Shown: positions 12,839 to 55,355 of the stretch, one piece after another
Layout: the number at the start of each line of letters is the position of its first letter
Position numbering within the stretch: the first letter of the stretch is position 1
IMG/VR virus record: IMGVR_UViG_3300033402_000312
Direction: 5' to 3' (one strand)
Length of the DNA: 64,000 bases
Origin: a virus
Notes under the pieces: generated by a model
Told to the model about the DNA's origin: nothing
The model's input: only the letters and a program-made list of their open reading frames with translations
Databases searched by the model: none
Translations under genes and position numbers: made by a program

Positions 12839-15800
12839 TTACTCACGAGTGCCACAAACAAAACGGTATTTCATGATGAGGCTGTCAGTATCAATAGTCT
12901 CTGGGCGAACAAAAACCTCATAGACGAACCCACCGTTTGGGTCATCGTTCCAAACGGCTGCTTGCGCCCAACTAGAATTCAGAGCGCTCTTAATGTCCCC
13001 GTCGTTGAGTTTTTTCATCAACCACGCAACACGACCGCCTTTGCCGGTGACTCCTAATGGTTGTGTCTGTTGACCCTGCTCAATAATGTCAAGCTGAATT
13101 TCCCCTACGCCTGGAACTTTATCAAGCAATGGACGTTGTGTAATTTTGAAACTTGCTACGAAAGTTGCGGCTATTTCCCCGCATACCTTTTTCAAAAACT
13201 CGGAGAATTGCTTAACTTCGTCTCCCGCAGCGACTTTCTGAGAGGCGATGGCCATCGCGGCTCCCGGTATTCCCTCATACTGACCATAAAATTCATCAGT
13301 AAACATATACCCTCTAATATCGTTCTCCTTGCGGAGAGGCGCTCCTTCGAGAACCTCGGGCTTGCCGTCGCGCCCGATGCCCATTCCGCCCGCTGGCTTA
13401 GTGGACGAGTAGTCCGCCGCAGCCATCGCGAGAGGCTCGACTTCGCCTACGTCGGCAGGCAACTGGATCATCTCGATCACGTTGGTGTCGAGTGCCTCGT
13501 CAAGCATGCCCTCAAGCTCGTGGCTGTCGTCTCCGACGATCTCCGGGTTGCCTGCGCCGCTCATCGGCTGGTTGGTTGCGTTCGGGTAATCCACGATCTC
13601 ATGCTGGATTTCCGGGTAGAATTCCTTCACCACCTGTCCGGGGAAGAAGAAATTGAAGCCCGCTTCCTTTTCGACCTGCTCTTCTGTTTTTGCCATACCG
13701 TCTCCTGCTGTCTTGCCCGCGTCAATTTGCGCCATCGCATCCAAGAACCGTTTCTCTCCGCGACCGCTCTTCAAGGCGGCAATCGCGTCCCGAGCGTTCT
13801 GACCAAACATTTTCAGATTCTCGCGACCTTGGTTTCCGCGCAAAGGATTTTCGCGGGGCAAGTTAACGCCCGCGCCGCCGATAGGCTTGCCCTTATAATA
13901 GAGCATGTAGCCATCGGCATTTGCTTGGTAGGTTAAATCTTCCGCCGCTTTTTTAACGCCCACATTCACGACTTTGGAGAAATCTTTCTTTGTGCCGCGC
14001 CTGTAGCTTTCCCAGCAATCGGATGTGTCTGGGGCGTCGCACTTGATCTTCTTGAAGAGCGTCCAACTGCCTTTTGGCTCCCGGGCCCCCTCGGAGTCTT
14101 GCGTATCCTCGGTCACAAGCTCTATTTTGATTTTCCGATTCGTCGGATGAAAGAAAAACATGTACAATGAACCGTCCACGTTTTCTTGCTTCCAGCCGTT
14201 CGCCCTCAGCAGTTTCTTCATCTGCGTGATGAGCTTGCTATGCCCCCAGCCCTTCTGAGCGGCTTTCTTCACGCCCGTGCCCCCTGCCGTGTAGGCTTTC
14301 TCGTCCCAGCGCAGGCCGTACTGCGCGAGTATCTGCTCGGACTCTTCCCTGTCCGGGCCGCCCATGACGTTGACCATCGGGTCGGGCATCTTCATCGTCT
14401 GGACGGCGATCTGAAGCTGGTGCCATTCCGGCGTGCCCTTCTGCGGCATGCGCTTCACAGAGGTGACATGGATGGCTGCGTTCTTCAGCGAGGAAGAGAT
14501 GCCGACGCTTTTCATGAAGGCGCTGTCTTGGATGTCGGTCTCCCTGCGTTCGTAGTCCATGTTCGCCTTGGCAAGCTCGACCCAGTTCGGCTCTTCCCAC
14601 GGCTCGTTTCCCTCGAACCCGGATTCGCGCTTAAGCTCTTCGTATTGCTTCCTGAAAGTCTTCTTCAGTTGCTCGGCAAGCTGCTCCGGCGTCAAGCCCT
14701 CCTTGATGGCGCGGCGCACCATGTCCTGCTTGAGTTCGAACGTCTCCCTGCTCTCGTTGTCGAGCCACATGTCAAGCTGCCCGGTCTCCCAGTTCGACCA
14801 GTGCTCCTCGCTAATGCCTTGCGGGTCGTCGGCGGTTTTGCCCGAGCTTGCTGATGTTTTCATCGAGATGCATTCGTTGCACAGCCCACGGCCTTCCTCT
14901 AGCTCCGTGCCGGGCAGAAGCTCCTCGCCGCACTTGTAGCAAAACCGCTCAGGATGCTCCGATTCCCCGGATTGCTGCTGCAATTCCTCAAACTTTTTGC
15001 CGCGAGTACCCGCCCCCGCTTGGTCGTAGAATACGTAGGTGTCGCTTTCCGGCGCGTAATCCATCTGCAAGCCCAAGGCTTCCGCAGTGTCCATCATGAA
15101 CGTCGTAAGCTGCTGCTCGAAGGAATCCATGTAGCCTTGCGGGTTCCTCTTCTTCAAGTCCGCGAAGATGCCGTTGAGCCTGTCCGTGACCGCCTTGATC
15201 ACGTCGGTCTTGTTCTTCTCGCTGACGCGGCTCTCGATGGACAGCGCCCTCTTGCCGAAGGAGGCCTTCTTGGAGGCGCTCACGATCCTCTCGGTCTCCC
15301 AGTCGTCGAAACGCATCGCAGGCTTGCCATCCACTTGCCCGCGCACAGCCCAAGTGAAGTCTTGCCCGTTGTGCTCCGGGTCAATCGTCGGGTACTTCTT
15401 TTGAGCCTCGGCGAGGTTCGGGAAGACCTCGCGCCCCTTGCTGCGGGTCACGACCTCGACGGGCGAGTTCACATAGCTCCTCCATTCGACCCACGCTGCT
15501 GTCTTTGTCCTTACGGCAGTTTTGAGGTGCCAGCGCATCTGCTTGTGCTTGAGCAAGCCTTCCCTGAGGAGGTCCTGGAGCACAGGATAAGCCATGTTGG
15601 TGTACTTGCCGCCGCCGAGCGCTTTTTCGATTTCGTCCGTCGTCTTCGGGCCGTGGCCCAGGATTTCCAGCACAAGGTTGCGCTTCGCAGGATCGGCTGC
15701 CGCTGTCTTCTTCACGGGCGGTTTTTCGGGCGGAATCGGCGTTTCGCTCACGGCAGTATGGGAGTTCCACCCGCACGAGCAGGCGTAGGAGTCCTCGGGC

Positions 15801-17614
15801 TTGCCCTTCGATGTCATTTTCCCGCACCACGGGCACCTCATAGTCCAGTTGCTCGCGAACTTGCTGAACTTAGCGGATGCGCTCTTGATGAAGGCATGCG
15901 CTTCCTTGAAGGAGGAGAACGAAGCCTCGCGCCGGGTGCCGCGAAAGACGAACCCAACGTGGAACGATGGGCCCTCTAAGTCCGTGCCGCCGAAAGCCCC
16001 GGTGCCCATGCCCGATGTGACTTTGCCTTGGTTTTCGCCGCCGATTGGCTCAGCGCCCTGCTTGACTTCGGAGGCATCCCCGATCTCGCGCCATATCCCG
16101 CCGCTTTGATCGACCCAAACGTTTTCTGCTTGGTTGTAGTCGAACTCTTCGCTGTTTTCGCTGGCAGCGGCAAGCTCTCCAATGTCGTGGACTTGGACGC
16201 GCTTGCCTTGGCGTTCAAGGACACGGAGGTTGGCGGTCTTTGTTGACTCAGCGCCCTTTTTCTCCTTCGCGATCTCGGCCTCGACGACGGCTTGGGCGTC
16301 GGAAGTGGTGAGACCTTCCTCTTCCAGTTTCCTGACCCTCTCCGCGTAGTCGGGACTCGGGTCGTTCGGGTACTGTTGACCGCCGGTCCCGATGCCCAGC
16401 TTGTCCCGAATATCGACGAATTTCTGCTGGGGATTGATGGGTTTAAGGCTCGTCAGGAGCTTCACCAATTGATGGTAGTTTTCGTTTTCCAATTGGTCGA
16501 TGACGGCTTGGGAGATGCGCTTGAAGCCAGCAGTCTTCATCGCCGCAAGCATCGCCGCCTGGTAGCGTGCCTCCAGTTGCGGGTCCTCCATGATCTGGCC
16601 GCCGCTTTCGATGCCGAGCCTGTCCCAGACATCGTTCTCCAGCAGCATGAGCCTCTCGGCTTGGGAGACCGCCGTCTTGGAGCCGACGTTGATGATGATC
16701 TGGGTGCCTGGCTTCGCGGAGACCTCGGTTGCGCCAGCCGGGGCCTCGCCGTTGAGCTTGGCTTCCGTCTGCTCCACGGCACGCTCGACTTGCTCCTGCT
16801 TGACCTCGATGGGCTTGTGGACTTCCATTTCCGCCTGCGTCTCGATTGCCTCGCGGATCGCGTTCACGTTCTGGCGCTCCGGGGACTTGATTCCGCCGTC
16901 GGCCACAGGGACGCCGTTTTCCTCGTGCGTGTTCGCATGAAGCTCGTCGTTGGAGGCCCCCGCTTCCGGCCCGTCGATGTGGGCTTCGCCGTACGCGTTC
17001 TCTATCGGCTCCATCATCTTCGAAAGCTCTTGGTCGCTGTGGATCAGTTCGGCCGCCAGCTTGTAGGCTTCCGGGCTGTAGCCGTCGTCGGCGAACTTGA
17101 TCGTCACGCCTGTTTTCGTCGAGGCCGCCTTAAGCTTCGCCTCGTATGGCTGCTCTTTCGCGGGCAGCCCCAACGCTTCCAGGTGCTTGCACTTGCGGTG
17201 GCCGATCCAGCCGGGGCAGTTGCAGCCCCAATAGCGCCACTTCTTGTTCTGCGCGATGGTGTAAAGCCTGCCGGAAGACTCGGACTTGATGTAGAAGCGG
17301 TTCGTCCATTGCTTGTTGTCAGGCAGCAGTTGCCCCTCAAATCGTTGTCCGTTGATAACTATGGCTTGCGGGTTGTACTCGGGGTCGTCCGCAGGCTGCG
17401 GGGCTTTGCCCTCGGGTCGCGGCGCTTTCTTCTCGGATTGCTGGGACGGGACGGCGATGTTGAGGGGCTTCATGCCTGCCTCTTCGCGCATCTCGTTGAG
17501 GGCGTCGATCTCTTCCTGCTCGACCGGGTGCCCTTCGGTGAGCTTCCAAAGCAGCGTCTTCGTGAAGACGTTGACTGCGTTGGTTATGTCCGCGATTTTA
17601 TTCTGCTGGTTCAT
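12839..17614 (-). CDS. giant virion-module protein (1591 aa) with N-terminal SWIM-type zinc finger
   Basis: ATG preceded by AAGGGAG. SWIM CxCxnCxH: WGCNCPGWIGHRKCKHLEAL. Additional zinc ribbon CPWCGKMTSKGKPEDSYACSCG and a KYCYKCGEE...CNEC pair. Acidic overall. Confidence 0.7.
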   Translation of the reverse strand: MNQQNKIADITNAVNVFTKTLLWKLTEGHPVEQEEIDALNEMREEAGMKPLNIAVPSQQSEKKAPRPEGKAPQPADDPEYNPQAIVINGQRFEGQLLPDNKQWTNRFYIKSESSGRLYTIAQNKKWRYWGCNCPGWIGHRKCKHLEALGLPAKEQPYEAKLKAASTKTGVTIKFADDGYSPEAYKLAAELIHSDQELSKMMEPIENAYGEAHIDGPEAGASNDELHANTHEENGVPVADGGIKSPERQNVNAIREAIETQAEMEVHKPIEVKQEQVERAVEQTEAKLNGEAPAGATEVSAKPGTQIIINVGSKTAVSQAERLMLLENDVWDRLGIESGGQIMEDPQLEARYQAAMLAAMKTAGFKRISQAVIDQLENENYHQLVKLLTSLKPINPQQKFVDIRDKLGIGTGGQQYPNDPSPDYAERVRKLEEEGLTTSDAQAVVEAEIAKEKKGAESTKTANLRVLERQGKRVQVHDIGELAAASENSEEFDYNQAENVWVDQSGGIWREIGDASEVKQGAEPIGGENQGKVTSGMGTGAFGGTDLEGPSFHVGFVFRGTRREASFSSFKEAHAFIKSASAKFSKFASNWTMRCPWCGKMTSKGKPEDSYACSCGWNSHTAVSETPIPPEKPPVKKTAAADPAKRNLVLEILGHGPKTTDEIEKALGGGKYTNMAYPVLQDLLREGLLKHKQMRWHLKTAVRTKTAAWVEWRSYVNSPVEVVTRSKGREVFPNLAEAQKKYPTIDPEHNGQDFTWAVRGQVDGKPAMRFDDWETERIVSASKKASFGKRALSIESRVSEKNKTDVIKAVTDRLNGIFADLKKRNPQGYMDSFEQQLTTFMMDTAEALGLQMDYAPESDTYVFYDQAGAGTRGKKFEELQQQSGESEHPERFCYKCGEELLPGTELEEGRGLCNECISMKTSASSGKTADDPQGISEEHWSNWETGQLDMWLDNESRETFELKQDMVRRAIKEGLTPEQLAEQLKKTFRKQYEELKRESGFEGNEPWEEPNWVELAKANMDYERRETDIQDSAFMKSVGISSSLKNAAIHVTSVKRMPQKGTPEWHQLQIAVQTMKMPDPMVNVMGGPDREESEQILAQYGLRWDEKAYTAGGTGVKKAAQKGWGHSKLITQMKKLLRANGWKQENVDGSLYMFFFHPTNRKIKIELVTEDTQDSEGAREPKGSWTLFKKIKCDAPDTSDCWESYRRGTKKDFSKVVNVGVKKAAEDLTYQANADGYMLYYKGKPIGGAGVNLPRENPLRGNQGRENLKMFGQNARDAIAALKSGRGEKRFLDAMAQIDAGKTAGDGMAKTEEQVEKEAGFNFFFPGQVVKEFYPEIQHEIVDYPNATNQPMSGAGNPEIVGDDSHELEGMLDEALDTNVIEMIQLPADVGEVEPLAMAAADYSSTKPAGGMGIGRDGKPEVLEGAPLRKENDIRGYMFTDEFYGQYEGIPGAAMAIASQKVAAGDEVKQFSEFLKKVCGEIAATFVASFKITQRPLLDKVPGVGEIQLDIIEQGQQTQPLGVTGKGGRVAWLMKKLNDGDIKSALNSSWAQAAVWNDDPNGGFVYEVFVRPETIDTDSLIMKYRFVCGTRE

Positions 17615-17628: not shown

Positions 17629-20600
17629 TTACTTTTCTTCTTCGTCTTCCACGAGGACGATGTCAGCCAAATCTCCGGCCCCAAAATCGAACTCTACCGA
17701 CTCGGACTGATCCTCACCGCACGCCGTCTTGTCTTTGCTGGCAAAATGCTCCGGGTTCACCGTGTCTTCCGCTGCGGGTTCGCCCGCGATTGCCGCCTTG
17801 TCGAAATCGACTCCCGCATCCGCTTCAGCGAGGTCTCCCTCGACGCCGCCGTCATGCTTCGGCCCGACGATCTGCTTGACGGCGGAGTTCTTTCGCCCGG
17901 CCTGCTCCGCTGACTCGGTCTGCGTCGCCATCGGCTCGCCCGCGACCCCGGCCTTGTCGTAGTCAAGCCCGGACTTCGCCTCGCCCATGTCGCCGCTGAT
18001 GTCATCCGCAACTTTTTCGACATCATTTGGCTGACTGTCCTGGACGCGAACAGATAAATGGGGCAAATCCCCCATCATTGCGCGAGCCAGATGGTCTGCT
18101 TCTTCATTGGTATCAAAAGAGTCAAAAACAAATTCTTTGCCACTGTTGTGGACTGGGTTCCTTACTATGACTTGGAATCTTTTTCCATGAACATCATGAG
18201 AAGCTTTGCGCCTGCCCGCGTCGAGGACGGAGACTGTCGGCTGCGGGATGTCCTTGTCCACGGCGTTCGGGCTGGTGCTCTCGGACTTCGCCTGCGCTAT
18301 GTCGCCCTCGATCCCGTGGTCGTGCTTTTCGCCGACCATCTGCTTGACGCCCGTGTTCTGGTTCGCGCTCTTGGTGTTGCTCGGCGTCGGCCCTGAGGTG
18401 TCCCTCTTCTCGACGACCTTCTTGTTCTCCGGCGCTCCCTTGCCGTCGTTCTCCATGTTGTACGGGTTGTCGGCGGTGTCGGCTTTCTTCGCGTTCGCGG
18501 GCTGCGCTTTTCCGTCGTTCGGCGGCGCATCCGCACGACGCTCATTTCTGATCGCCTCCTCCATATCCTCTACAGAGGGGATCGCTTCTATCGCGCTCGT
18601 CTTGTCCTTCCCCTGGGCATGCTCGGGCTTGCTTTCCATCCGGTCGTCAAGCCCCGCCGTCCCGTATTCGCGGACGGAACGCAGCGCCTTTCCCGCCTCC
18701 TCGGTAGTCATGGGCCTGAGCACGCTGCCAGCCGCATCGGCTTTCTTCTGCCCCTGCGGGGGAGCATCCGGGCCGCTGGTGTCCTCAACGTCCGCGTCGG
18801 TCTTGGGCTGGATCACGCCCTCGCCGCCCCTCCAGTTGGCGGGGTTGTCGGCAGTGTCGCTTCTCTTTCTCCTCAGCGGCTTCTTCGGTGCCTTCTTTGC
18901 CTGCTGGGCGATCATTTTCTCGATCATCGCCATCAGCGGCTTGTAAGTCATGAACGTTTTTCCGCCGAGACTGATGAGATAGCCGTTGGAACTGCTTTGA
19001 TCCTCAAAGAGACCGTAGACCGGGTGAACCAGGTCGCCGCTCTCGTCCTCTCTGAATCCTGCACGCTCAAGGGCGTTGTGGATTCTCGCCATCGAGAACT
19101 GCGTTGGAAGAGAGTTGTCATCTCCCTCTTCTTCGTCGTCTTCTTCGTCAACCAGGAATCCCTCGCTGTTCGTCCGTGGCGACCATCCCTTTCCCTTCGG
19201 CGCTGCTTGTTTGATGTCCGCGCCAGCCTCGGGCCTCGGTCGGTCTGTGCCCTTGGAGCGCTCGGCGTCGGTGTCCTTGTGGCACTCGACGGTGCCGCTC
19301 GGCCCGGTCTCCTCGGAGGTCGGGTCCGAAGCAGCGTCGATGTCGTGCTCGTTGTCCGCCGTGTCGGCGACTTTGGCAGAGGCTTCTTTCTCCTGCGACT
19401 CGCCGGTCTCACCGCTAACGCGGGGGAAACTGCGCCGCAGATTCTTATCTCTAGCAAGCGCAAATGGATGAAATTCTCCATCCGCGTCAATGATGCCATC
19501 CTTGTTTTTGGATATGATGCGACCGCAGCCCACGCAATCTATCGGAGCATTTACCGCCTGGCAAGACGGGTTGGTGCAATGAGACGCCGTGCCGTGCGGG
19601 TACCTCCTGTTGCATTCTGGGCAACGACCACTGGCAGCACCACAATGCGGGCACTTAAGCCGAGGCTCCGCTGTCTTGGCGCTCGCCTCATGCTGATAGC
19701 TGCGGATGCGCTTGAAAAGCGCCGCCGCTTCCTGCTTTTCCTGAGGCTCAAGACCGGCCGCGCTGAGCAGATTATCCCAGTTGCGCCTCAGGTCGGACAC
19801 GTCGCCGATCATGTCGTTCATGCCGATGTCGCCCGACTGCTGCGCCATGACGAAGCCGTCGCTGGTGATCGCCATGTCGGTGATTGACGGGTTGGTGTAG
19901 GTCTCGCCGAGGATGTACCCCACGATTGCCGCCATCTTGCCGGACATGTCGGAGAAGCGGCCGGGGAACAGCTTCTTCTTCAGGCCCTCGGACGCCGCTG
20001 CCGTCTTGGACGCCATGCACTCATGCTGGATTTCATCGCTTTCGGCTGAGCAGCAAGGGTCGTCCTCGTCAACGTCGAAGCCGCACTCGCGGCACTTGCG
20101 CTGCCTGACCCACCTGCCGCTCTCCTCGTCCCAGCGTGCGTTCGCGTTCGGGCAGCCGTGCTCGTGGCAGGGCACGCCGTTGATCGCCGCCATCTCGCAC
20201 TGGTCGCAGCTTACGCGGCGGCCGGAGTCCTCGATCTCGCCGGAGACTTCGTCCACGAAGTCGGCGAACTTGCTGTCGATGCGCCAGGCGGACTGCTTGG
20301 TGGCCTCGTTTTCGAGACCGGACTCTTCCCTTTCCGCATCGCCTTCGGAGACCTCCTTTTTGTCCTCCGGCTCGGGGCTGCGGAACGCCTCCGGCAGGTC
20401 TCCCACGTCGCGCTTGTTTGGGCGTGCGCTGCTGCGCGGCTCCGTGCTCTGGCTCTCGCCTTCCGTGTTGGACGGGGCGGAGTTGCTCGGGTCGGTGTCA
20501 ACGTCCACCAGCGGAGCCGGACCCATGTCCTCGGTGATCGCGTCCCAGATGGAGTCGATGTCAAGCTCGACCGCCGTCTTCGGGCGGAACCTGTCGAGCA

Positions 20601-23847: not shown

Positions 23848-23857
23848 ACGTTCCCCT

Positions 23858-26498: not shown

Positions 26499-26502
26499 GG
26501 CA

Positions 26503-27629: not shown

Positions 27630-27631
27630 AG

Positions 27632-30886: not shown

Positions 30887-30903
30887 ACCTATCCGAAACC
30901 CGG

Positions 30904-30938
30904 AAAAGGCGGGCTTGTGGCCCGCCTTTTCCTTTTGC
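30904..30938 (+). terminator. rho-independent terminator (approximate coordinates)
   Basis: GGCGGGC-ttgtg-GCCCGCC followed by TTTTCCTTTTGC, immediately after the stop of 29306..30886. Confidence 0.6.
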
Positions 30939-31085
30939 TTCTTCAAAATTCACAGTATTGGAGTATTGGGTGGTGGGGTTTTGCGATTAAATCCAAAGGA
31001 CACACCACCCCATTATAATCGTACCACAAAATTTCATGGAGGCACGACGTAAGTCGTTGACAATAAAATCGAGAACACGCCCTAC

Positions 31086-32007: not shown

Positions 32008-32120
32008 CGAGCCAGTCAGCGAAAGCTTCCCAAGCTGCGTTCAGCACGTAAAAGATTATGAAGAGCAAAACCGCGACCGTCGCGCACGCAAACGCCAACG
32101 TGAGATCGGAAAGCACCTGT

Positions 32121-43967: not shown

Positions 43968-44927
43968 TTAGTTCTCACCCGTGTTCGCCGAGCTAACGAA
44001 ACGTCCGTTAACCGTCAAACGCTGGACTCCCGAAGGATTGAAAACCAAAAATCCCAAATTCTCGAAGATCGAGAAGCCGATCTGGCGGAGGTCCGGACGG
44101 TCGGCAGACATCACCGTGAGCGGAATACGCTCGGGGATGACGCCGAGGAACTCTGCGTCCGCAAGGATGTAAATGGAGCCGTAGCCGACCTTACGGGACT
44201 GGAGCAGCGTTGCGCCCCAGAGGTAGCCCATGACGCCGGTCTTGAGCAGCTTGCGCTGGGTTTCGCGGTCGATGTTCTGCTGAGTCCACTTGAGCAGGTC
44301 GGTGTAGTCGCGCGGGTTGAAGAACACGAACGCAACCGAGAGGTCGTGACGCTGCACCTGACCGAAGCCATCAGCCATGCTGTTGATGTCGATAGGGGCG
44401 TTGATCGCGATGTCCGGGTTGTACACCGGGTCGTTTGCCGCGTGCGTTGCCGCTGCGGAAGCGACTGCGTCGAAGAGCGAGAAGACGTAGGCGTCTTCCT
44501 GCGCTCCGACTTCTGCCTTCGCCAAGTTCAGGGAACGGGCGACGAGGTCGAAGCGGCGCTCCTTGATCTGGGTGATGGGGATCATCGGGTTGGAGACGAT
44601 TTCGAACGTCGGCACGGTGACGCGCTTCGGCTTGGTGACGCGGACGATGTCGCCGCCCTCTTCACCAACCACGAAAGCTTCGACGAAGGACGAGCCGGGT
44701 GTGGAGCCGACTGTCATCGCCGCCGTGTCGAATTCCTTGTCGTAGATCGGCAGTGCGCCGTCAGGCAGTGTCTCGACCATGAGCGCCTTGCGTGCGATGC
44801 TCATGTAGTCGCGACGGCGGCGAAGGGAAGGACCCAACGACGCTGCGAGCTTCTGGCGTCCGCCTGCTGTCTTGAGCAGTTGCCCAAGCATTGCGGTCTG
44901 TTGCTGCGTGCGTGAAAGATTTGCCAT
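43968..44927 (-). CDS. putative major capsid protein (319 aa from the internal ATG)
   Basis: ATG at 44927 preceded by TTAGGAGAAAAA. Sits after the scaffold-like gene and is followed by the strongest terminator in the window. Size and composition are compatible with an HK97-fold coat protein. No motif-level proof. Confidence 0.5.
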   Translation of the reverse strand: MANLSRTQQQTAMLGQLLKTAGGRQKLAASLGPSLRRRRDYMSIARKALMVETLPDGALPIYDKEFDTAAMTVGSTPGSSFVEAFVVGEEGGDIVRVTKPKRVTVPTFEIVSNPMIPITQIKERRFDLVARSLNLAKAEVGAQEDAYVFSLFDAVASAAATHAANDPVYNPDIAINAPIDINSMADGFGQVQRHDLSVAFVFFNPRDYTDLLKWTQQNIDRETQRKLLKTGVMGYLWGATLLQSRKVGYGSIYILADAEFLGVIPERIPLTVMSADRPDLRQIGFSIFENLGFLVFNPSGVQRLTVNGRFVSSANTGEN

Positions 44928-44968
44928 GATAGTTTTTCTCCTAAGAAGTTGTCTTAGTCGATTCCCCC

Positions 44969-45541
44969 TTACAGCAAGCTCGCAACGCCCAGCCACGGCT
45001 CGGGAGCCGTGGGGACGTGCGTGACGATGCCAACGGCAGGCGAGGCTGAACCCTTGTGAGCGGAGTCAGTGTACTTGCCGACGTTGGATTTTGTGTTGCC
45101 GCCTGCGTAGGCGTACTGCCCGAGCGCGAAGTTCGCGTTGGCATCGTAGCCTTGGAAGTCAACGTTGCCTTGCCACAAAGCGCGGACAACAGGAGCCTTG
45201 CGGGAGCCGGAAGGCCCGATAGCACCAGCGAACTCGCCGGGGCCATTGAGCAGTGTTGCGAACGGGACGTTGCCCTCGGAAGCGCCATAGGAAGGCGACG
45301 CCGCGTCAGTGTCAACGGGGACGATGTTTCCAATGGAACCCATCGCAGGCTCGTATGACGGCTGGAACGCAAGGGGGGCGGTCAAGGTCGCGGACGAGTC
45401 GATGATCGCCACGATGACGCCGCCGAGGTAGCCAGCGGAGGTAAGAGTCTGTTGGTCAGTGCCCGGATCGCCGGTCAGGAAGACGGCCGGGGTGCAATTG
45501 ACCGAATCGTTCTGACCATAGTATGTCAATTTCAAAGACAT
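44969..45541 (-). CDS. head-module protein (190 aa), Gly/Ala/Ser-rich; decoration or minor capsid candidate
   Basis: ATG preceded by TGGAGAAA. Located between the scaffold-like gene and the capsid gene. Confidence 0.45.
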   Translation of the reverse strand: MSLKLTYYGQNDSVNCTPAVFLTGDPGTDQQTLTSAGYLGGVIVAIIDSSATLTAPLAFQPSYEPAMGSIGNIVPVDTDAASPSYGASEGNVPFATLLNGPGEFAGAIGPSGSRKAPVVRALWQGNVDFQGYDANANFALGQYAYAGGNTKSNVGKYTDSAHKGSASPAVGIVTHVPTAPEPWLGVASLL

Positions 45542-48672: not shown

Positions 48673-49596
48673 TCAACGCCTCAAGTCCCCGCGAAAATCC
48701 GACTCAAGCAAAAACTCCCCGGTATCTTGGGCAAGGGTTTTTGAAGCAATCATGGCAAATTTAGAAGCTGCCGACTGCTTCTTGGTGTACGGGGTCGAGG
48801 GGCCGACCCATTCCTCGGCGACGATGCTTCTTTTCGCGGCTCCGGGGAACGCCGGGGTTGCAACCCAGCTTGCCTCGACGAATTTCACGCCGCCGTTGAC
48901 CATGGTCTTGTGCCCGCAAAGCTCGGCGATGCGGCGCGGGATGCCGTCGTCGTCGGCCAAGAACGTGCCCTTCTGGAAAGAGAGGTGGTTGCAGTACGTG
49001 TTGGCGTCAGTGACGCGGGTCCCGCAGTAGGAGCAGATGACAAGGTCGGTCACGCACCCCATGGACAGGTAGCGGACGTTGCCCTCGCGGATGTCGTTTA
49101 CCAGCTTCTCATGGGTGATGTCGGTCGCCACCAGGATGTCGCAGTAGTAGACCCAGATTTCGGGGGTAATGTTGATCTTGCGCAGGACTTGATCCAAGAT
49201 ATGCCCTTTTGCGTATTTACTGTTCTGAAAATGCTCGACGAAGTTGAAGGCTCCGACAAACGAAGGCGCTGACAGCTTCAAGACTTCGTTAGTCCATGCG
49301 TCATCGTTGTTGTTGACCAGGTGGCTTGTCTCGGGCTTGATCAGGTAATCGAACGGCTCTTCCTCCGTCATCACGCTGCTCATGATCGTTACGTGCGACA
49401 GCAAGTACTTTGAAGAAGAACCAGCGGCCATTTTTCGGCGTGCTGCCGCTGCGCTTCTGCTTGCAACTTTGCAGAACGGATGATCGCTGTCGATGTCGCA
49501 GCCGCGAAACGCACGCTTCCCGAACATCTTTTCCCAGTCGCCGGGATTCAGGATGGGTTCGTTCAACTGCGCGTTTGCTATCTTGTTAAACGGCAT
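48673..49596 (-). CDS. head-module protein (307 aa); prohead protease candidate by position only
   Basis: Lies between the 1883-aa gene and the scaffold-like gene. Contains conserved-looking His/Cys/Ser residues but no motif I can assign. Confidence 0.4.
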   Translation of the reverse strand: MPFNKIANAQLNEPILNPGDWEKMFGKRAFRGCDIDSDHPFCKVASRSAAAARRKMAAGSSSKYLLSHVTIMSSVMTEEEPFDYLIKPETSHLVNNNDDAWTNEVLKLSAPSFVGAFNFVEHFQNSKYAKGHILDQVLRKINITPEIWVYYCDILVATDITHEKLVNDIREGNVRYLSMGCVTDLVICSYCGTRVTDANTYCNHLSFQKGTFLADDDGIPRRIAELCGHKTMVNGGVKFVEASWVATPAFPGAAKRSIVAEEWVGPSTPYTKKQSAASKFAMIASKTLAQDTGEFLLESDFRGDLRR

Positions 49597-49608: not shown

Positions 49609-52600
49609 TTAATGGCTTGGTAAGTTCGTCTTTCCCGCGACAGTCCCGATGCGCTGAACCACCTCGTCGTCCGGGCGCTCGCTCTTGCCCCATGCCGCGT
49701 CAATCTCGCCGAAAAGCGGGTTTTCCGCAGCGCTGCTCTTGTGCCTTTCCTCGCTGGGAACTTCCTCGTCGGGAACTTCTTCATCAGTGAAGTCGTGGAC
49801 GCGCTTGTACGGGTAGCCGTAGAACTCGGCGGTGTACTCCTCACCCGCCATGTCCCACATCTCGTCCATGGTCTTCGAGTTCTCCTCGGCGAGTTGCTTG
49901 ATGTAGCCCTCCTGCATGAAGTGGCGCTTCACCTCGTCCTCAGCGTCCTGCTCCTGTTCGAGAAAGTACTGCGCCTCCTCGCCGCGCTCCGTGTCCTGTT
50001 GCGCGTACTCGGCGGTTTTTGATGCCATGCGCTCCTCTTGTTCTTCCATTGAAGGACGTCGATGTGACGGATTAAGGTTTATACTGTACGGAGTTAAGCT
50101 CATTGGAACCTCACGTTCATCAACCTTCGGCGTTATCCTTACCTCCGCTGCGGGTAACTTATTGACGTGGTCGCGTAAAGCAGTACGAGCTTTCAAAAAA
50201 CTTTGCCATTCTGGTGTGCGCCTTCGCTCAAACTTGTTCTCCTGATAGCCTTTCGCCCAACTCCATGGCGTCTCTTTTTCTTTGGCTTTATACAGCTTGT
50301 AGGCTGTCACGACCTGCTTGCACAACTCAAGAAGTCTCGGTGCATTCCTGCCCGTGGCTTTTTCGACTAATGTCATGAAGCGCTTTGACGGATTATCCGG
50401 GGTAACAAACAGAAACTCCTTTGCCTCCCCAAGGAGAGAGGCGATCTTGCCTTTGCCCTCAAGCATCCTGCGGATGTCTGCGGGGCGCGACCATTCGGGA
50501 AGCTCCTTGGCGTCCAAGTCTGGCGGAAAATAGAAAATCCATTTATCCGTGACGGACGGCTCCCAGTTAGCGGCGAACGCCGTTGCCTGCGCGATTTGCT
50601 GCGGCGTCAGCCCTTTCGGCGGAAGGTGATAGAACAGCACGCCATCGTGCAAACCGACGCGCAGCGCCCCGGTGTCCTTAAGGAACGCGACAATCGCTTC
50701 CTCGTCCTCGTACTCTTCGTCGGTATAAAAGTTCTCAACCGTGAAATGGTCCATGTCGTCGCAATTCAAGATGGTGCCGTTCCGAAGGACGTAGATACGC
50801 TCATTGTCCACGGAGCCGATGCCGAACTGGTCGAGAGCAAGCTTTTCAAGTTCCTGCTTGCTGCGAGCGGCCGTCTTCGGGCGGGTTCCTTTGCTAGCGC
50901 ACTCCTTCGAGCAGAACGGGCGGCAACCCTCTGATTTCTTGTAATAGTTCGGTCCGCCGCAAACCGGGCAGTGGTGGCTCGGCTGCTTGACTTCGATTGC
51001 CGCGACCACGCCGTCAGGATTGATGCGCGGGTCGATCATCGGAATGCGCTTCTTTTTCGGGTTCAGCGGCTCATGCACGCCCTGCATCACGCCCTTGGTG
51101 AGCAAGTCCTGCTCCTGCTGGTCGAGGTGCTCCTTCATGTCGTCGCGGGGCGGGAGCTTGTCCGATGTCTCGTGCATCTCGATCAGCGCTTTCTTCTTGA
51201 GCAGAAAGGACTGGAACTGAAATCGCATCTGGTTCTTGTCTGTCTTCTGCTGCGGCGAACCGCCCTCGGTGTACCACTTCTCCATAAGCTCTGGCGCTTC
51301 GTACTCCTCATCACGGTCGCTGTAGTCCGGGTTCGGGTCAACCCAAAGCTCAAGCTGTCCATCACTGATGTCCTTCGGACCGTCGCTCAGCATTCTCGAC
51401 GCGCCCCAGCGGTCGAGAACTTCGTAGACCGGGGCGATCCTCCATTCGTAGCCGAAGCTCTCGTCGAACTTTGGGCCGTAGCGAAGCTCGGTGTAGACGT
51501 TGTCGTTGCGCTCGCGCATGCCGTCAGTGAGTTCGTAGTGAAGGTCGCTCGTGCGGTCATCCGCGTATCGCGCCTCGCCGCTGAGGCGGTAAGCCTCATG
51601 GATGTTTTTCCAAACCGAGCAGTCCGGTGCATAGCGTGCCATCGTCAGAAGAATTGACCGCATTTGGTTCTCATCTGTAAAGTCAATCTGCTGAACTTCA
51701 CGAGAAGAAGTGACTCGGCCTGCTTTTTGCTCCTGCGCCCACCATTGGAGCACCCCCTCTTCTTCCTGCTGGAGAGACTGACCGATCCGGCGCATCGCAT
51801 CGTAGCTGAGCGCTTTCACAAGCTCGTCCGCCATCTCCCTGTCATCAGGCATTTCCGGCGTGGGTCTGGTGCCCTCCGACCTCAGCGCGTAATACAGCGC
51901 GTCGTTTGCGCCCTCATTGCCGATCTGGGAGACACACTCCTCTAGGTCGTCCCACTCGCGCACGATCCACAGGTCTTGCTCGGGGCGGAAGTTGCGCTTG
52001 TCCAGCCCGGATTCAGGGGCGATACGCTCCATGAACTGCTCCCACATCTCGCTAGGGAAGAAAGTCTTCGCGTAAAAGTGCTCGTTTTTAGCGTCAGACG
52101 CAATAAGCGCTTCCTCGTGGAATGTGCCGTCTGGCATTGGTTCGATCCCCGGCGTGTCGCGCCATGCCCGCTTCAGTACTTCGACTGCGTATTTCGCTGA
52201 GCCAAACGCAGTCTCAAAGTTTGGCTGCGCTTTGTGTAATTTTGCTTCAAACTCCGGCCAGCGTCCTTTGATGACTCGAAGGGCATAGTCTACTGCCTGT
52301 GACATCATTGACCTGACTCCATATTTTTCGCTGCTCTTGGTGGGGAATGCTTTTTGTAGAATCTTCTTTTCGCCCGCTGCCCAACGCCCCCTGACAAATT
52401 CAAGCGCGTAATCCGTTATCTCTTGCTCCCTATCTTTGGCGCTGAGAACGGCTTTCTCCAACGGTGCCCATCGTTGCCCGGCGTGGAATTTTGCCCCGTA
52501 CCTCATAAGGAGAGGCAACTCGACCTGTTTCCCGAGGTGCTGCTCTTCCTCGGGGCTGAGAGGCTCGCCCTTCGCCAACGCGTACTGTACTGCCATGGTG

Positions 52601-55212
52601 CGGGTCTTCGTGCCTTTTGCCGATTCCTCCTCCTTTTTCTTGCCGAGGATTTCCACCAACGTTGCGGGGTCGGTGGCATTCTCCTTTACCCAAGCCGCGA
52701 CGTCCGGCGCTTTCGCGGATAGAAGCTGAAGCCCGCGCAAGGCGGTCGGGTCGTCAACGAATTTGGCGATGGTCTGCCCCTCGTCCTCGATCTCCTGAAC
52801 CATGCACACGTCGGTGCGATTCATAAGCTGATCGGAGGCGGGATGAAGCTGTGCGAAGGCGCTGCCGCCCTTGAAGAAGACGTAGCTGGGACCCTCGCTG
52901 AGATACTGCTTGCTCCACTTATTGTGCGCCGTGCACCAGTTCGTGCCGCCCGAAAGCTCCATGAGCGCGGCAGCGTCTATGACCTTATAGATCGTGAGGT
53001 CGCCGTCTTTCACGATGATCTCCGATCCTTTGGCGACGTCTTGGCGCACTTTCTCCTTTTTGCTGACCGCCTCTTGGTTCTGTTTAACGGTCTCGTACAG
53101 GGATTCCGGCATGTACGACTGAATGTCTTTGTTGCCTTGGAATTTCGGCGACTTCTTCAGCTTGTTGAACAGGTCAAGCTGCTGCTTGAGCTTCGGGGCA
53201 TCCTCGGGGAGCTTGATCAGATTCCTGCCGAGCCACTTCGCGATTGTTGCGACGAAGTCCGTCTGATTCGGGCTGGGGTCGGCTTGGATGCAAAATTCAA
53301 TCTGTTCGGGTGTGAGCCTGAACTGTTTCTGCAAAAGCTCGATCTTCTGCTCGGTAGGGCGTGCAGACTTGGCGAACCATCCGCAGTTGTCGGTGCTGCC
53401 GATTTTCCCCATCGCGACAGCTAGGTCGTTGCCATCCACCTCGGAGGCCCACAGGCGAGCTTGGCTGTCATATTCGTTTTCTTCAGACGAAGTCATGTTC
53501 AGCATCGCCTCGCCCTCGTCGAGTTCCTCTTCGTCGGAAGCCCCCGCGTCGGGGTTGTCGGTGCCGCCTATCGGCGTGCCCATGCCGTAGCTCTTGGTCG
53601 GGACGTCAGCGGTTTTTTTGCACGGGTCATTGATGCCCGGAACGATGCCGTGACCCCAATTTTTCCCGCAGGAGTTGCATTTCGCCGTTTCGAAGTCGGC
53701 AGGCATCAGACCGTAGTCGTCCGAGCCGCAGTGCGGGCACTTTGGCTTGCCGCCCAGCTTGACTTCCCTGTTCTGGATCACCGCCTTGACCATCTCTGGC
53801 TCAAGCGCATGCACGGAGACGATCTGCTCCGGCTTGACGGAGCCAACGGCTTTCAGCCAGCGCCCGGCGTTCGCCGCCTGCGAGATCGGGTCGGAGGTGT
53901 CAACCTTCCACTGCTCCGTGCCGAACTTGAAGGCAATGATGGAAATCTTGCCCGTGCCCATGCCCTTGTTAAACTCCCAGTCCATCTTGGATGCCCAGCG
54001 CACCGCATCGGCAGGGTTGTCGATTGCATAAATCTCGCCCTCGCCGTAGCGCTCGCCTTCCGGGCTGCCCTTGATCCAGTTGGAGGCCTGAAGCGGGAGG
54101 ATTCCCTTCTGCCTGATGCTTGGGACTTTGTCCGTGAACGTGACGTGGTACAGCGTTCTGCCTGCGCCTGCTGCCGTCCTTGCAAGCTCGGCGATGGTGA
54201 CGAGGCTGGCATCCTTGTGCGGCTTGTCGCCCTCGTCCCATTCCGCGCAGCAGGCAAGGGGAACAATGTGCATCCCCCAGAAAGCACACCATGACTTGCG
54301 ACCGTGCTGGTCTGGGGCTTCCGCCTCGGTGCCGTACTCGCAGCGGTGGCACCCGAAGCCGCCCTCGTGCTCGGCGTACTTGGCTTCCGCCCTGGAGAAC
54401 TTCTTCTCCATCGGCATCTGGTTTTCCGGGCTGCCTCTGTGGTACAGTCGGCACGACCCCTTCTCGAAGCTGATGGGTCCGTTGACGCGCATGCACTCGT
54501 CTGTACCTTGCCGCATGTCGCACGTCCCGCACAGGTAGTTGCCCTCCGGGTCGAATGACTTGATGTTGTCGGTGTTGACGTTGTCGGCAGGCTCGGCATA
54601 TTGCGACCACTGCTTAGCTTCCCTGCGCACGTGGTCTTCGTGCTCAAAATCGTACTGGCCTGAATCAGGGAACTGCCCGTGCGCTTTTTTGACGACTGGC
54701 GCGTGCTTGTAAAACTCGTGCTCCGCCTTGTCTTCTTCGACAGGGACAATCTCGCGAGCTTCCTTCTCTTCGCCTTGCACTTCCCTTAGCACGTTCTCAA
54801 TTGGCTTCACGCCGAGGCTGACGAGCGTAGCCTGCGCCTCGACCTGCGCCTCGCTCCAGTCCGGGTGCGCCTCGGCGATCTGGATATAGGTGTTGAGGTG
54901 GCGGCGATTCGCCGGGCGGCGGTGGTAGCGGGTCCCGACCTTCGGCTCGGACTCCTTGAAGAACTCCGCGTCCTCCGGGCCGGACGGGGGCGCAAGGTCT
55001 TTCGGCGGGATGACCACATTGATCTCGCCCGAGTTCCTGTCGCCCTTGTTCTCGAACTCGGTGCCCTTGCTCCCCCCGGTGCCGCCGATGGGGCTGGCGT
55101 AAGGCTTGTTGCCCTTGTCCACGCCGTGACCGCCGAGCGACTGGTAGTCGTCGGTCATCATCGAATCCAGAAGGGCGTCAAGGGCGCGTTTCTTCAGCAG
55201 TGGGGATTTCAT
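49609..55212 (-). CDS. giant protein (1867 aa from the ATG at 55212; 1883 aa from the GTG at 55260) with zinc ribbons and a possible ART-fold segment
   Basis: CGTCDM...C, CHRCEYG, KCPHCGSDDYGLMPADFETAKCNSCG, and CPVCGGPNYYKKSEGCRPFCSKEC ribbons. The segment LYHVTFTDKVPSIRQKGILP resembles the LYHGT...I...GL-P start of Tpt1/DarT-type ADP-ribosyltransferase folds. Confidence 0.7.
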   Translation of the reverse strand: MKSPLLKKRALDALLDSMMTDDYQSLGGHGVDKGNKPYASPIGGTGGSKGTEFENKGDRNSGEINVVIPPKDLAPPSGPEDAEFFKESEPKVGTRYHRRPANRRHLNTYIQIAEAHPDWSEAQVEAQATLVSLGVKPIENVLREVQGEEKEAREIVPVEEDKAEHEFYKHAPVVKKAHGQFPDSGQYDFEHEDHVRREAKQWSQYAEPADNVNTDNIKSFDPEGNYLCGTCDMRQGTDECMRVNGPISFEKGSCRLYHRGSPENQMPMEKKFSRAEAKYAEHEGGFGCHRCEYGTEAEAPDQHGRKSWCAFWGMHIVPLACCAEWDEGDKPHKDASLVTIAELARTAAGAGRTLYHVTFTDKVPSIRQKGILPLQASNWIKGSPEGERYGEGEIYAIDNPADAVRWASKMDWEFNKGMGTGKISIIAFKFGTEQWKVDTSDPISQAANAGRWLKAVGSVKPEQIVSVHALEPEMVKAVIQNREVKLGGKPKCPHCGSDDYGLMPADFETAKCNSCGKNWGHGIVPGINDPCKKTADVPTKSYGMGTPIGGTDNPDAGASDEEELDEGEAMLNMTSSEENEYDSQARLWASEVDGNDLAVAMGKIGSTDNCGWFAKSARPTEQKIELLQKQFRLTPEQIEFCIQADPSPNQTDFVATIAKWLGRNLIKLPEDAPKLKQQLDLFNKLKKSPKFQGNKDIQSYMPESLYETVKQNQEAVSKKEKVRQDVAKGSEIIVKDGDLTIYKVIDAAALMELSGGTNWCTAHNKWSKQYLSEGPSYVFFKGGSAFAQLHPASDQLMNRTDVCMVQEIEDEGQTIAKFVDDPTALRGLQLLSAKAPDVAAWVKENATDPATLVEILGKKKEEESAKGTKTRTMAVQYALAKGEPLSPEEEQHLGKQVELPLLMRYGAKFHAGQRWAPLEKAVLSAKDREQEITDYALEFVRGRWAAGEKKILQKAFPTKSSEKYGVRSMMSQAVDYALRVIKGRWPEFEAKLHKAQPNFETAFGSAKYAVEVLKRAWRDTPGIEPMPDGTFHEEALIASDAKNEHFYAKTFFPSEMWEQFMERIAPESGLDKRNFRPEQDLWIVREWDDLEECVSQIGNEGANDALYYALRSEGTRPTPEMPDDREMADELVKALSYDAMRRIGQSLQQEEEGVLQWWAQEQKAGRVTSSREVQQIDFTDENQMRSILLTMARYAPDCSVWKNIHEAYRLSGEARYADDRTSDLHYELTDGMRERNDNVYTELRYGPKFDESFGYEWRIAPVYEVLDRWGASRMLSDGPKDISDGQLELWVDPNPDYSDRDEEYEAPELMEKWYTEGGSPQQKTDKNQMRFQFQSFLLKKKALIEMHETSDKLPPRDDMKEHLDQQEQDLLTKGVMQGVHEPLNPKKKRIPMIDPRINPDGVVAAIEVKQPSHHCPVCGGPNYYKKSEGCRPFCSKECASKGTRPKTAARSKQELEKLALDQFGIGSVDNERIYVLRNGTILNCDDMDHFTVENFYTDEEYEDEEAIVAFLKDTGALRVGLHDGVLFYHLPPKGLTPQQIAQATAFAANWEPSVTDKWIFYFPPDLDAKELPEWSRPADIRRMLEGKGKIASLLGEAKEFLFVTPDNPSKRFMTLVEKATGRNAPRLLELCKQVVTAYKLYKAKEKETPWSWAKGYQENKFERRRTPEWQSFLKARTALRDHVNKLPAAEVRITPKVDEREVPMSLTPYSINLNPSHRRPSMEEQEERMASKTAEYAQQDTERGEEAQYFLEQEQDAEDEVKRHFMQEGYIKQLAEENSKTMDEMWDMAGEEYTAEFYGYPYKRVHDFTDEEVPDEEVPSEERHKSSAAENPLFGEIDAAWGKSERPDDEVVQRIGTVAGKTNLPSH

Positions 55213-55355
55213 CCTAATAGAAGAACGGGAAAGTCCGAGAAAACAGAGAATATAAAGCACTGAAAACGCAGGAGATCGCTACTGGACATTTTTTGATGCC
55301 CGGCTGTATACTATTGGCGTACGAACGGCATCAAATAAGAAGGAGGAAGGAACCC

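Follow-up and report, generated by a model that had tools for sequence, protein, structure and literature searches.

The stretch of viral DNA analysed here, a window of 64,000 nucleotides, raises the question of what seven long open reading frames (ORFs) embedded among virion genes encode, and what the phage might do with their products. A preliminary description placed the seven between the terminase and the tail genes, put their sum at roughly 28 kb or 44% of the window, and regarded them as one set of acidic, zinc-ribbon-rich proteins that may form an undescribed class of packaged cargo. The ORFs do lie between the terminase gene (8803-10932) and the tail sheath gene (61225-63999), and they measure 27.9 kb (43.6%). 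All seven are on the minus strand, in the same direction as the terminase, head protease, capsid and sheath genes, and are named here A1591 (12839-17614; 1591 aa), B2072 (17629-23847; 2072 aa), C730 (24363-26555; 730 aa counted from the first GTG), D1660 (33862-38844; 1660 aa), E741 (46368-48593; 741 aa), F1883 (49609-55260; 1883 aa counted from a GTG) and G633 (58840-60741; 633 aa). The 712 aa originally given for the third ORF fits an internal ATG start, but not the first GTG. The probable true start of F1883 is M17 at 55212, from which the JGI product of 1867 aa is counted.

The window comes from among the head and packaging genes of a huge soil phage, put at roughly 450 kb, that is related to Tunturiibacter phage Tunturi_5, a cultivated phage. 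A comparison of gene neighbourhoods, which had been proposed as a check, showed that the gene order matches Tunturi_5 gp326-gp350 and gp1, with the giant genes standing alongside those for the head protease, a scaffold-position protein and the capsid. The head maturation protease (48673-49596, minus strand) has 55% identity to Tunturi_5 gp331 and matches phrog_18299 at E 3e-14, and a PDB sequence search with it returned no match. The major capsid protein (43968-44927, minus strand) has its true start at MANLSR.... The phage also encodes a sigma-factor homologue, which suggests that it uses the host polymerase. Searches by tblastn with the terminal domains of A1591 (C-terminal) and D1660 (N-terminal) against 50,697 phage records found Tunturi_5 only, or nothing.

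The initial impression that the seven proteins carry no recognisable signature was borne out at the sequence level, with no Pfam, NCBIfam or PDB-sequence match above threshold. Scans against Pfam, NCBIfam and PHROGs returned nothing beyond short matches to zinc ribbons and four modules in PHROGs to which no function is assigned, and PDB sequence searches gave weak zinc-finger matches and PioC (HiPIP) at E 0.059. The isolated Cys-rich modules, and a module with a predicted ADP-ribosyltransferase (ART) fold described below, had no Pfam match at E up to 10. Homology to tape-measure, portal or RNA polymerase proteins, which had been named as evidence against packaged cargo, was looked for and found neither in Pfam, where no polymerase, portal or TMP family matches any of the giants, nor against Tunturi_5 genes, of which the TMP gp257 and the portal gp7 match no window ORF. 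Portal, tape measure and polymerase identities were rejected on this absence of homology. Also absent were peptidase families in the giants (Pfam, NCBIfam and PHROGs), including any zincin-like processing metallopeptidase, methyltransferase or helicase domains in A1591, B2072 or the other giants (Pfam and NCBIfam), matches above threshold between window proteins and the polyvalent-protein Pfam families, and, in PHROGs, any similarity to the E or inner-body proteins of giant phages.

Six of the seven proteins are acidic as claimed (D+E 15-20% versus K+R 11-13%), but C730 is neutral (13.7% each). CxxC motifs number 3 in A1591, 10 in B2072, 6 in C730, 12 in D1660, 2 in E741, 5 in F1883 and 0 in G633. 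In 1000 shuffles of each protein the mean was 0.1-1.0 and the maximum never exceeded 5, so the Cys motifs are real; the figure of at least eight ribbons each in B2072 and D1660 was nevertheless too high, their motifs amounting to about 4-6 paired ribbons. Three paired CxxC ribbons are present in C730 and one ribbon each in A1591 and E741; G633 is without any cysteine and hence without zinc ribbons. Low-hydrophobicity sequence makes up 36% of B2072, 44% of E741 (where it is rich in A/E/K/P) and 30% of G633. The seven do not hold together as a single class: E741 keeps its length and sequence across relatives, hypervariability marks the F, D and B proteins, G633 is ribbon-free, and A1591 and B2072 are one split gene. 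Paralogy among the seven was rejected, since they share short module matches only.

A recurring architecture is found in A1591, B2072, C730, D1660 and F1883, which combine a clade-conserved terminal handle with a hypervariable string of small modules of 30-250 aa, many of them zinc ribbons. Their multi-domain make-up is apparent from shuffled homology blocks and from segments bounded by the motif K[TKQ]A. D1660 has a conserved N-terminal handle (about residues 1-420/460) followed by a variable, zinc-ribbon-rich C-terminal string; D-slot proteins of relatives range from 493 to 1940 aa, and in relatives with capsids 83-98% identical the D-slot protein retains only the N-terminal ~420 aa. Proteins in the F slot range from 539 to 2576 aa across relatives, and even where the capsids are 83-98% identical their lengths still run from 539 to 1952 aa and the matches are purely mosaic. 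Within the F family modules recur in altered order, and in F1883 itself the N-terminal (residues 17-108) and C-terminal modules are conserved and the middle is re-ordered; no counterpart of F1883 was found in Tunturi_5. Comparison of the sequences indicates that modules have been exchanged both between relatives and between genes, the B and D families having 491 HSPs between them at up to 80% identity.

Some modules also occur outside the giants. A module of B2072 (residues 903-1039; 20731-21141, minus strand) matches phrog_1915 at E 9e-33 and forms a small gene of its own in 298 phage records, among them mycobacteriophages and phages of Klebsiella and Caulobacter. Another in D1660 (residues 1097-1202; 35239-35556, minus strand; phrog_9437, E 3e-28) is the stand-alone gp289 of Tunturi_5, and it has 49% identity to residues 257-365 of P0139, a distant protein with SNF2, N6_Mtase and Helicase_C domains. 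Residues 163-488 of C730 are homologous to gp348, which is denser in K[TKQ]A than any other Tunturi_5 protein.

The two ORFs nearest the terminase gene are the two halves of one ancestral gene, represented by Tunturi_5 gp350, with B2072 corresponding to the N-terminal half of the gp350 homologue and A1591 to the C-terminal half, at 41-44% identity at both ends. The B|A split is seen in two independent assemblies. A1591 consists of variable modules followed by a conserved C-terminal domain (residues 1307-1591) that is equivalent to the gp350 C-terminus. B2072 begins with a handle (residues 1-290; 22978-23847, minus strand), continues for some 1700 aa as a series of small modules with acidic linkers, and ends in a conserved C-tail, 'FDFGAGDLADIV'. 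Across the B family (70 proteins of 1150-2521 aa) the only common sequence is the first ~290 aa and this C-terminal tail, and the handle is N-terminal in every one of its 106 representative clusters. The structural model of the handle is of moderate quality (pLDDT 57) and had no match in BFVD at E <= 0.001, which makes its role in loading a guess. Tunturi_5 gp350 is labelled a 'DarB-like antirestriction protein' by a structure-based annotation pipeline, a label that was not reproduced here because the handle model has no BFVD relative. Like P1 DarB, the gp350 homologue is very large and encoded beside packaging genes, and the SNF2 and methylase composition of P0139, in which the D1660 module occurs, matches that of DarB; unlike DarB, every giant in the window is without N6-adenine methyltransferase and superfamily-2 helicase domains.

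F1883 contains a predicted ART fold, a HEAT-like solenoid and zinc ribbons in one chain. Residues 369-504 ('LYHVT...'; 53749-54156, minus strand) are predicted to fold as an ADP-ribosyltransferase, with Foldseek E-values of 4e-3 or weaker and no sequence-level match. Within this module H372 of 'LYHVT' is invariant and S393-N394-W395 are nearly so; set against the catalytic H-Y-E or R-S-E motif of the superfamily, no acid was assigned. Two F-slot homologues, P0094 and P0099, carry the Pfam family ART-PolyVal (E 1e-18); GNAT domains are present in five more. The largest continuous fold of F1883 (residues 634-1080) has structural matches to HEAT/ARM-like repeats only.

E741 and G633 are of a different kind. 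The gene for E741 sits between those for the head protease and the major capsid protein. E741 is a homologue of Tunturi_5 gp332, is 690-820 aa long in relatives, and has 40-84% identity over residues 200-741, with conserved K-x-A sites at 357, 420, 448 and 619. In position, in its hydrophilic, low-complexity sequence and in its conservation along with the capsid it resembles a scaffolding protein, and it is referred to here by its scaffold position. Part of G633 matches Tunturi_5 gp328, which is annotated as a 'DNA ejection protein'.

A short linker motif, K-[T/K/Q]-A, connects these proteins. KTA is the most over-represented tripeptide: it is seen 23 times versus 3.3 expected, 500 local shuffles never gave more than 10, and each of the five remaining permutations of the three residues occurs 1-6 times; in 159 family proteins KTA is present 533 times versus 73-116 for the other orders. 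Per 1000 aa, K[TK]A occurs 5.3 times in the seven proteins versus 0.6 in the remaining window ORFs, and copies of K[TKQ]A number 5-20 in A1591, B2072, D1660 and F1883 and 4 in C730. The motif lies where modules join. KTA is shared after identical upstream modules that are followed by differing downstream modules, and the reverse is also seen; homology blocks start within 5 aa of the motif in 24% of cases versus 7.4% at random, in sequences that are related and not independent, and the peak of block starts falls exactly on the motif K. In modelled regions all three motif copies are in segments with pLDDT below 50, and an invariant K-T-A-D (B2072 residues 243-246) is inside a low-confidence linker of the handle model. 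Simple composition bias is ruled out as a cause by permutation counts and local shuffles. Codons of the motif vary freely, so a DNA-level signal is rejected and selection acts at the protein level. The motif is also present in the homologous genes of Tunturi_5, where the five of 79 ORFs with the highest density are gp348, gp332 (the scaffold position), gp350, gp328 (the 'DNA ejection protein') and the protease gp331. The head maturation protease of the window was searched for strict K[TKQ]A and has no copy. The linker motif could also serve another purpose, such as docking or flexibility.

Taken together, the synteny with head genes, the predicted ART fold, the ART-PolyVal and GNAT domains of homologues, the module shared with P0139 and a motif that in Tunturi_5 marks the homologues of these proteins along with the protease and the scaffold-position protein make packaged cargo that is ejected with the DNA the best-supported reading, though indirectly. 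What the analysis shows is the genes themselves, their synteny and hypervariability, the sharing of modules, the statistics of the motif and the predicted ART fold; packaging, cleavage, ejection and targets we infer. It is somewhat better than an even bet that A/B, C730, D1660 and F1883 are polyvalent cargo proteins that are packaged, cut by the protease at K-[T/K/Q]-A and ejected with the DNA. The handles would load the giant proteins into the prohead together with the scaffold-position protein E741 and the ejection-type G633, and the head maturation protease would then cut at the motif to give many small proteins inside the capsid. Ejected with the DNA, these might target the nucleic acids, transcription or defences of the host ahead of any phage gene expression, and module swaps at motif-bearing linkers would renew the effector set. 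A more specific version, in which this soil huge-phage clade delivers dozens of pre-made small effectors as protease-cleavable, KTA-separated polyproteins behind a few capsid-loading handles, with cassettes of 30-250 aa swapped at linkers from one carrier gene or phage to another, is put forward tentatively and could well prove wrong.

The head-gene context and the sharing of the motif with the scaffold-position protein would also fit a structural inner body or bolus, as proposed for phiKZ-type phages, in which the proteins organise or pressurise the large genome in the capsid, the modules and zinc ribbons hold on to phage DNA, and nothing acts as an effector after ejection. Long acidic low-complexity stretches in B2072, E741 and G633, the many modules that are zinc ribbons or plausible DNA binders, and the tens of MDa of internal protein in giant phages (PMC10052503) all point that way. 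Such a body, however, leaves unexplained why length and content differ so greatly among phages whose capsids are 98% identical, why there is an ART fold together with ART-PolyVal and GNAT in homologues, and why other phages have some of the modules as separate non-structural genes, and we think it unlikely. The giants might instead stay in the cytoplasm as late multidomain proteins, either assembly or late anti-defence factors, with K-[T/K/Q]-A a favoured linker that is never cut. Virion association of the giants is deduced from context, the motif falls in linkers predicted to be disordered, a setting in which short motifs of biased composition often occur, and the window protease has no strict copy of it. 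Against this improbable account, composition-matched permutations and local shuffles exclude simple bias, a generic linker would not single out the protease, the scaffold-position protein and the 'ejection protein' of Tunturi_5, and pre-made effectors among late head genes make most sense if packaged.

A place on the outside of the virion, as fibres, decoration or tail appendages, comes to mind because the giants adjoin tail as well as head genes and because several nearby Tunturi_5 genes of >1000 aa are annotated as tail fibre proteins. Yet gp337, gp341 and gp342, the genes annotated as fibres, encode non-acidic proteins (D+E 6-8%) that lack CxxC, hardly ever carry the motif and are without a window homologue, whereas acidity, abundant zinc ribbons and linkers, and a predicted ART fold characterise the giants of the window; an external location is very unlikely. 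Sequence methods do miss polymerases of the crAss type, and A1591 and most of D1660 are outside the modelled regions, so that some large enzyme, such as a divergent N4- or crAss-type virion RNA polymerase, might in principle be hidden in a giant. This is scarcely credible for proteins that are mosaics of modules mostly <250 aa, whose largest continuous fold resembles only HEAT/ARM-like repeats and which have no match to any polymerase family, in a phage whose sigma-factor homologue suggests use of the host enzyme. N4 virion RNA polymerase and crAss-like cargo are likewise giant proteins encoded with virion genes, but no polymerase domain was detected in the small-module mosaics of the window.

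Among smaller internal proteins, those of T4 have a short targeting sequence that is removed by the prohead protease, and the prohead protease of phiKZ cuts at S/A/G-X-E. Unlike the strings of modules of 1600-2000 aa described here, T4 Alt and IPI-IPIII are small single-function chains of about 10-75 kDa, and the T4 cleavage motif is L/I-X-E. T4 packages the ADP-ribosyltransferase Alt in its head and injects it together with the DNA (PMC5512222). In SPN3US, whose ejection proteins are processed by the prohead protease, as in phiKZ and 201phi2-1, large phages encode many internal head proteins near head genes, and the protease cuts these at a short consensus, the protease and scaffold-type proteins being cut too (PMC10052503); here we infer such cleavage. 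The window giants differ in having no sequence homology to the E or inner-body proteins of these phages, and the known motif is A-X-E, not K-T-A (PMC10052503). Known cleavages of giant-phage E proteins, moreover, mostly remove N-terminal propeptides and do not dissect a chain into multiple modules.

Packaged cargo of the polyvalent kind has the closest precedent. As set out in Iyer et al. 2017 (PMC5512222), polyvalent proteins join several (2-15) distinct domains in one polypeptide, are predicted from genomic context to be injected with DNA, and draw on a repertoire of ART-PolyVal, GNAT, SNF2/MTase, ArdC, MuF and LPD families. The window proteins are like them in having many unrelated domains in a very large chain, in being encoded with a portal-terminase packaging system and in being predicted to be packaged and injected, and ART and GNAT effector domains occur in their wider family (ART-PolyVal in P0094 and P0099 and the predicted fold in F1883). 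They differ from them in lacking the defined Pfam families, zincin-like peptidase, methylase and helicase, having instead a separate adjacent protease; in their much smaller modules; and in the clade-specific terminal handle on each protein. The K-[T/K/Q]-A linker motif, too, is not described in the passages of the survey used here. To speak of an undescribed class was therefore an overstatement, the architecture fitting both polyvalent proteins (PMC5512222) and protease-processed ejection proteins (PMC10052503).

If packaging and ejection hold, about 40% of the head region would be an exchangeable library of injected proteins, and part of the reason for the size of huge phages would be explained. 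On the more specific version that library would be one of injectable effectors in modular form, and so differ from the polyvalent proteins known to date, which are rich in enzymes. A handle together with K-T-A-bounded cassettes would then be a simple sequence rule by which packaged proteins and their mature fragments might be predicted in uncultivated phages, and the many small modules, whether zinc ribbons or of no known type, would be candidates for immediate-early factors directed against the host or its defences. The tripeptide is found in the capsid protein as well: KTA occupies residues 17-19 in all 16 clade relatives examined, in an N-terminal segment that is near-identical throughout, and Tunturi_5 has KSA there.

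The seven long open reading frames of the window, each designated by a letter and its length in amino acids, lie on the minus strand at 12839-17614 (A1591), 17629-23847 (B2072), 24363-26555 (C730, for which the 712 aa given earlier are consistent with an internal ATG start), 33862-38844 (D1660), 46368-48593 (E741), 49609-55260 (F1883, whose JGI product has 1867 aa and starts at M17) and 58840-60741 (G633). They amount to 27.9 kb, or 43.6% of the window, in line with the 44% given in a preliminary description, and, again as described there, the large terminase (8803-10932; PHROG terminase families) lies on one side of the set and the tail sheath (61225-63999; Pfam Phage_sheath_1C) on the other. 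The statement that no known signature is recognisable was borne out by all seven proteins, which have no Pfam, NCBIfam or PDB-sequence match above threshold; the features that define DarB, portal, tape-measure and polymerase proteins were not found in them. Acidity had been claimed for all, and holds for six of the seven, C730 being neutral. CxxC motifs number 3, 10, 6, 12, 2, 5 and 0 from A to G (G633 is cysteine-free), and are real because shuffled sequences (means 0.1-1.0) never exceeded 5, but the "at least 8 ribbons each" reported earlier for B2072 and D1660 had counted single CxxC motifs and not pairs.

Along its whole length the window terminase shares 42% identity with the terminase of Tunturiibacter phage Tunturi_5, a 308.7-kb jumbo myovirus from Arctic tundra soil with an acidobacterial host (PMC11924767), and gene order in the window parallels Tunturi_5 gp326-gp350 and gp1. 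The sheath corresponds to gp326, G633 in part to gp328 (labelled 'DNA ejection protein'), 57570-58250 to gp329, the head maturation protease (48673-49596) to gp331 (55% identity), E741 to gp332, the major capsid protein (43968-44996) to gp334 (70% identity), the first 100 aa of D1660 to gp345 ('virion structural protein') and C730 to gp348; PHROGs also back the protease (phrog_18299) and capsid (phrog_2522) assignments. F1883 has no Tunturi_5 counterpart, and a 170-aa gene occupies that position. Relatives of the window capsid protein are encoded at no fewer than 163 IMG/VR loci, the best 80 of which are 83-98% identical to it. The window proteins lie on an 894,233-bp contig, and the contigs of relatives measure 447-465 kb; since half of 894,233 is 447,117, the longer contig may represent two concatenated copies of a ~447-kb genome and not a phage of record size.

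The seven proteins had been treated as one set, a grouping that does not hold: E741 is stable, G633 lacks cysteine and is conserved only in part, and A1591 and B2072 are, judging by sequence comparison, halves of one ancestral gene. The N-terminus of B2072 and the C-terminus of A1591 match the respective ends of Tunturi_5 gp350, and a single chain joining the B handle (the clade-conserved terminal domain of the giant protein) to the A C-terminal domain is found in gp350, in the homologues P0058 and P0070 and in more distant members of the family. The split itself, a stop codon and a 14-nt spacer, is seen in two independent assemblies. Relatives of E741 have 690-820 aa and are 40-84% identical across residues 200-741; because this protein is stable, low in hydrophobicity (44% low-hydrophobicity sequence, rich in A/E/K/P) and encoded between the protease and capsid genes, it is assigned to the scaffold position.

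The giant proteins combine conserved termini with exchangeable small modules. In the B family, 70 proteins with lengths of 1150-2521 aa have nothing in common but their first ~290 aa, at 50-90% identity, and the C-terminal tail 'FDFGAGDLADIV'. In an exhaustive HMMER search the B handle was confined to 106 representative clusters, N-terminal in all, and a structure search with its model found no recognisable relative. In the D slot (the same gene position in relatives) the N-terminal ~420 aa alone are conserved, in totals of 493 to 1940 aa. F-slot proteins range from 539 to 2576 aa, with a conserved N-terminal segment (residues 17-108) and two conserved C-terminal segments around a variable middle in which modules reappear in changed orders; the zinc ribbon at residues 500-551 of F1883 lies at 112, 552 or 675 in different homologues. 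In phages whose capsid proteins are 98% identical, the F-slot proteins share only 50-62% identity across half of their length, and the remainder is unrelated. Modules are shared between the B and D families (491 HSPs, identity up to 80%), and several are separate small genes elsewhere: residues 903-1039 of B2072 (phrog_1915) are found in 298 phage records, and residues 1097-1202 of D1660 (phrog_9437) stand alone as Tunturi_5 gp289.

Of all tripeptides in the seven proteins, KTA is the most over-represented (23 observed, 3.2 expected), followed by KKA. When the sequences were shuffled locally, within blocks of 15-60 aa, KTA averaged 3.3 copies and never exceeded 10, and each of the other five permutations of K, T and A is present 1-6 times. 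In 159 proteins of the families, KTA was counted 533 times and each of the other permutations 73-116 times. The seven proteins carry 5.3 K[TK]A motifs per 1000 aa and the other window ORFs 0.6. The motif codons vary freely, and selection therefore acts on the peptide. The motif lies at module junctions: the upstream module 'HGIVxGINDP' leads through KTA into five different downstream modules, and 'EYTQEDWERD' follows KTA behind four different upstream modules. Homology blocks, in related and hence non-independent sequences, start within 5 aa of a motif in 24% of cases against 7.4% at random, with a peak exactly at K, and their ends peak 2-3 residues past it. All three motif copies within modelled regions fall in segments with pLDDT below 50.

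All of 36 sequences have K-T-A-D behind the B handle, and K-x-A sites are conserved in the scaffold-position family. Capsid residues 17-19 are KTA in 16 of 16 clade relatives examined and KSA in Tunturi_5, which adds little alone because the whole N-terminal segment is near-identical in the 16. In Tunturi_5, ranking by motif density covered 79 ORFs with 200 aa or more, from 173 kb of the 309-kb genome. The median density was zero, and the five densest were gp348, gp332 (scaffold position), gp350, gp328 (the 'DNA ejection protein') and gp331, the protease. The motif is nearly absent from the sheath, the capsid protein and the tail-fibre-annotated gp337, gp341 and gp342. The window protease carries no strict copy.

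Prohead proteases cleave at consensus motifs that mark the protease itself, the scaffold, the N-terminus of the capsid protein and proteins that are internal or ejected, and the T4 motif is L/I-X-E. That of SPN3US is A-X-E (PMC10052503). The K-[T/K/Q]-A pattern resembles these consensus motifs, and from this likeness we infer a scheme of loading, cleavage, ejection and module exchange. Handle domains would load the giants into the prohead, where the adjacent protease would cleave them at K-[T/K/Q]-A and so release numerous small proteins; these would exit together with the DNA and act on their presumed targets, and module swaps at the motif-bearing linkers would refresh the repertoire. Tunturi_5 is a cultivated phage, which makes the idea directly testable.

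One candidate effector lies in F1883, whose structure model covers residues 340-1420 and has two confident regions. Residues 369-504 (pLDDT 85-90) matched only ADP-ribosyltransferase (ART) folds by two methods, with Foldseek probability 1.00 for Tpt1/KptA, cholera and heat-labile toxins, DarT1 and Rhs ART toxins, and H372 of 'LYHVT' is invariant across the F family. These matches support a predicted ART fold; because even the best Foldseek E-value is a modest 4e-3 and a Pfam search matched no sequence family, the support extends to fold and not to catalysis. Residues 634-1080 are modelled as a HEAT-like solenoid. Among F-slot homologues, P0094 (E 1e-18) and P0099 (E 6e-16) carry Pfam ART-PolyVal and five others carry GNAT domains. 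The phrog_9437 module of D1660 shares 49% identity with a segment of P0139, a protein of 2620 aa with SNF2, N6-methylase and helicase domains, the composition seen in DarB.

The nearest concept is the polyvalent protein (Iyer et al. 2017; PMC5512222), whose injected forms have named effectors that include ART and GNAT domains (PMC5512222; PMC7824862). The window giants are proposed to work alike but differ from the polyvalent proteins described there in two features: at the sequence level they match none of the repertoire domains, and no peptidase was found within their chains. The nearest process is protease maturation of giant-phage ejection proteins, to which the giants have no homology. 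No equivalent of the handle-plus-cassette organisation or of the K-T-A boundary motif was found in the literature, the available portion of PMC5512222 describes nothing like the motif, and within those bounds both appear undescribed.

Several further features were seen within the giant genes. Residues ~1490-2072 of B2072 (17629-19400, minus strand) contain repeated acidic spacer units that recur throughout the B family. One unit, '[KR]x[AS]DTADN', is at residues 1492, 1661 and 1787; the other, 'GDxx[EQ]A[KHED][SA]', is at 1848, 1952 and 2004. The best-conserved F-family module (F1883 residues ~186-346; 54222-54705, minus strand) is 57-72% identical in most homologues and has two cysteine clusters resembling a HiPIP 4Fe-4S signature; the one database match is a weak PDB hit to PioC (E 0.059), with none in Pfam. 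SWIM-like CxC...CxH zinc-finger signatures were noted by eye, without Pfam support, in the gp336 homologue (41173-42228, minus strand) and at residues ~129-145 of A1591 (about 17180-17230).

Homing-endonuclease-like ORFs lie between the giant genes and beside the capsid gene (12001-12861, 26503-27306 and 42891-43874, all minus strand), with LAGLIDADG and GIY-YIG domains that pass Pfam cut-offs and a NUMOD3 domain just below (19.0 versus 20.4 bits); tblastn gave no Tunturi_5 match. The ORFs at 27309-28211 and 23769-24350 (both minus strand) look largely spurious, being arginine-rich and in overlapping frames; only the final ~100 codons of the former are gene-like, and its last ~60 residues match Tunturi_5 gp347. 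Just past the terminase lie two minus-strand genes, one for a C5 cytosine DNA methyltransferase (5183-5977; Pfam E 1e-40) and one for a homologue of the Tunturi_5 sigma factor gp3 (6772-8157). Two plus-strand islands break the head module: 55293-57566, opening with a DUF932 protein (55293-56147; Pfam E 2e-7), and 29306-33613, holding a homologue of Tunturi_5 gp346 ('exonuclease') at 31086-31802. Outside the window-homologous region of Tunturi_5, gp321 (segment L003, 26463-30551) and gp273 (segment L004, 40764-45233), of 1362 and 1489 aa and labelled 'MutT/NUDIX hydrolase', adjoin head-tail connector and minor head genes and may be further cargo-type proteins.
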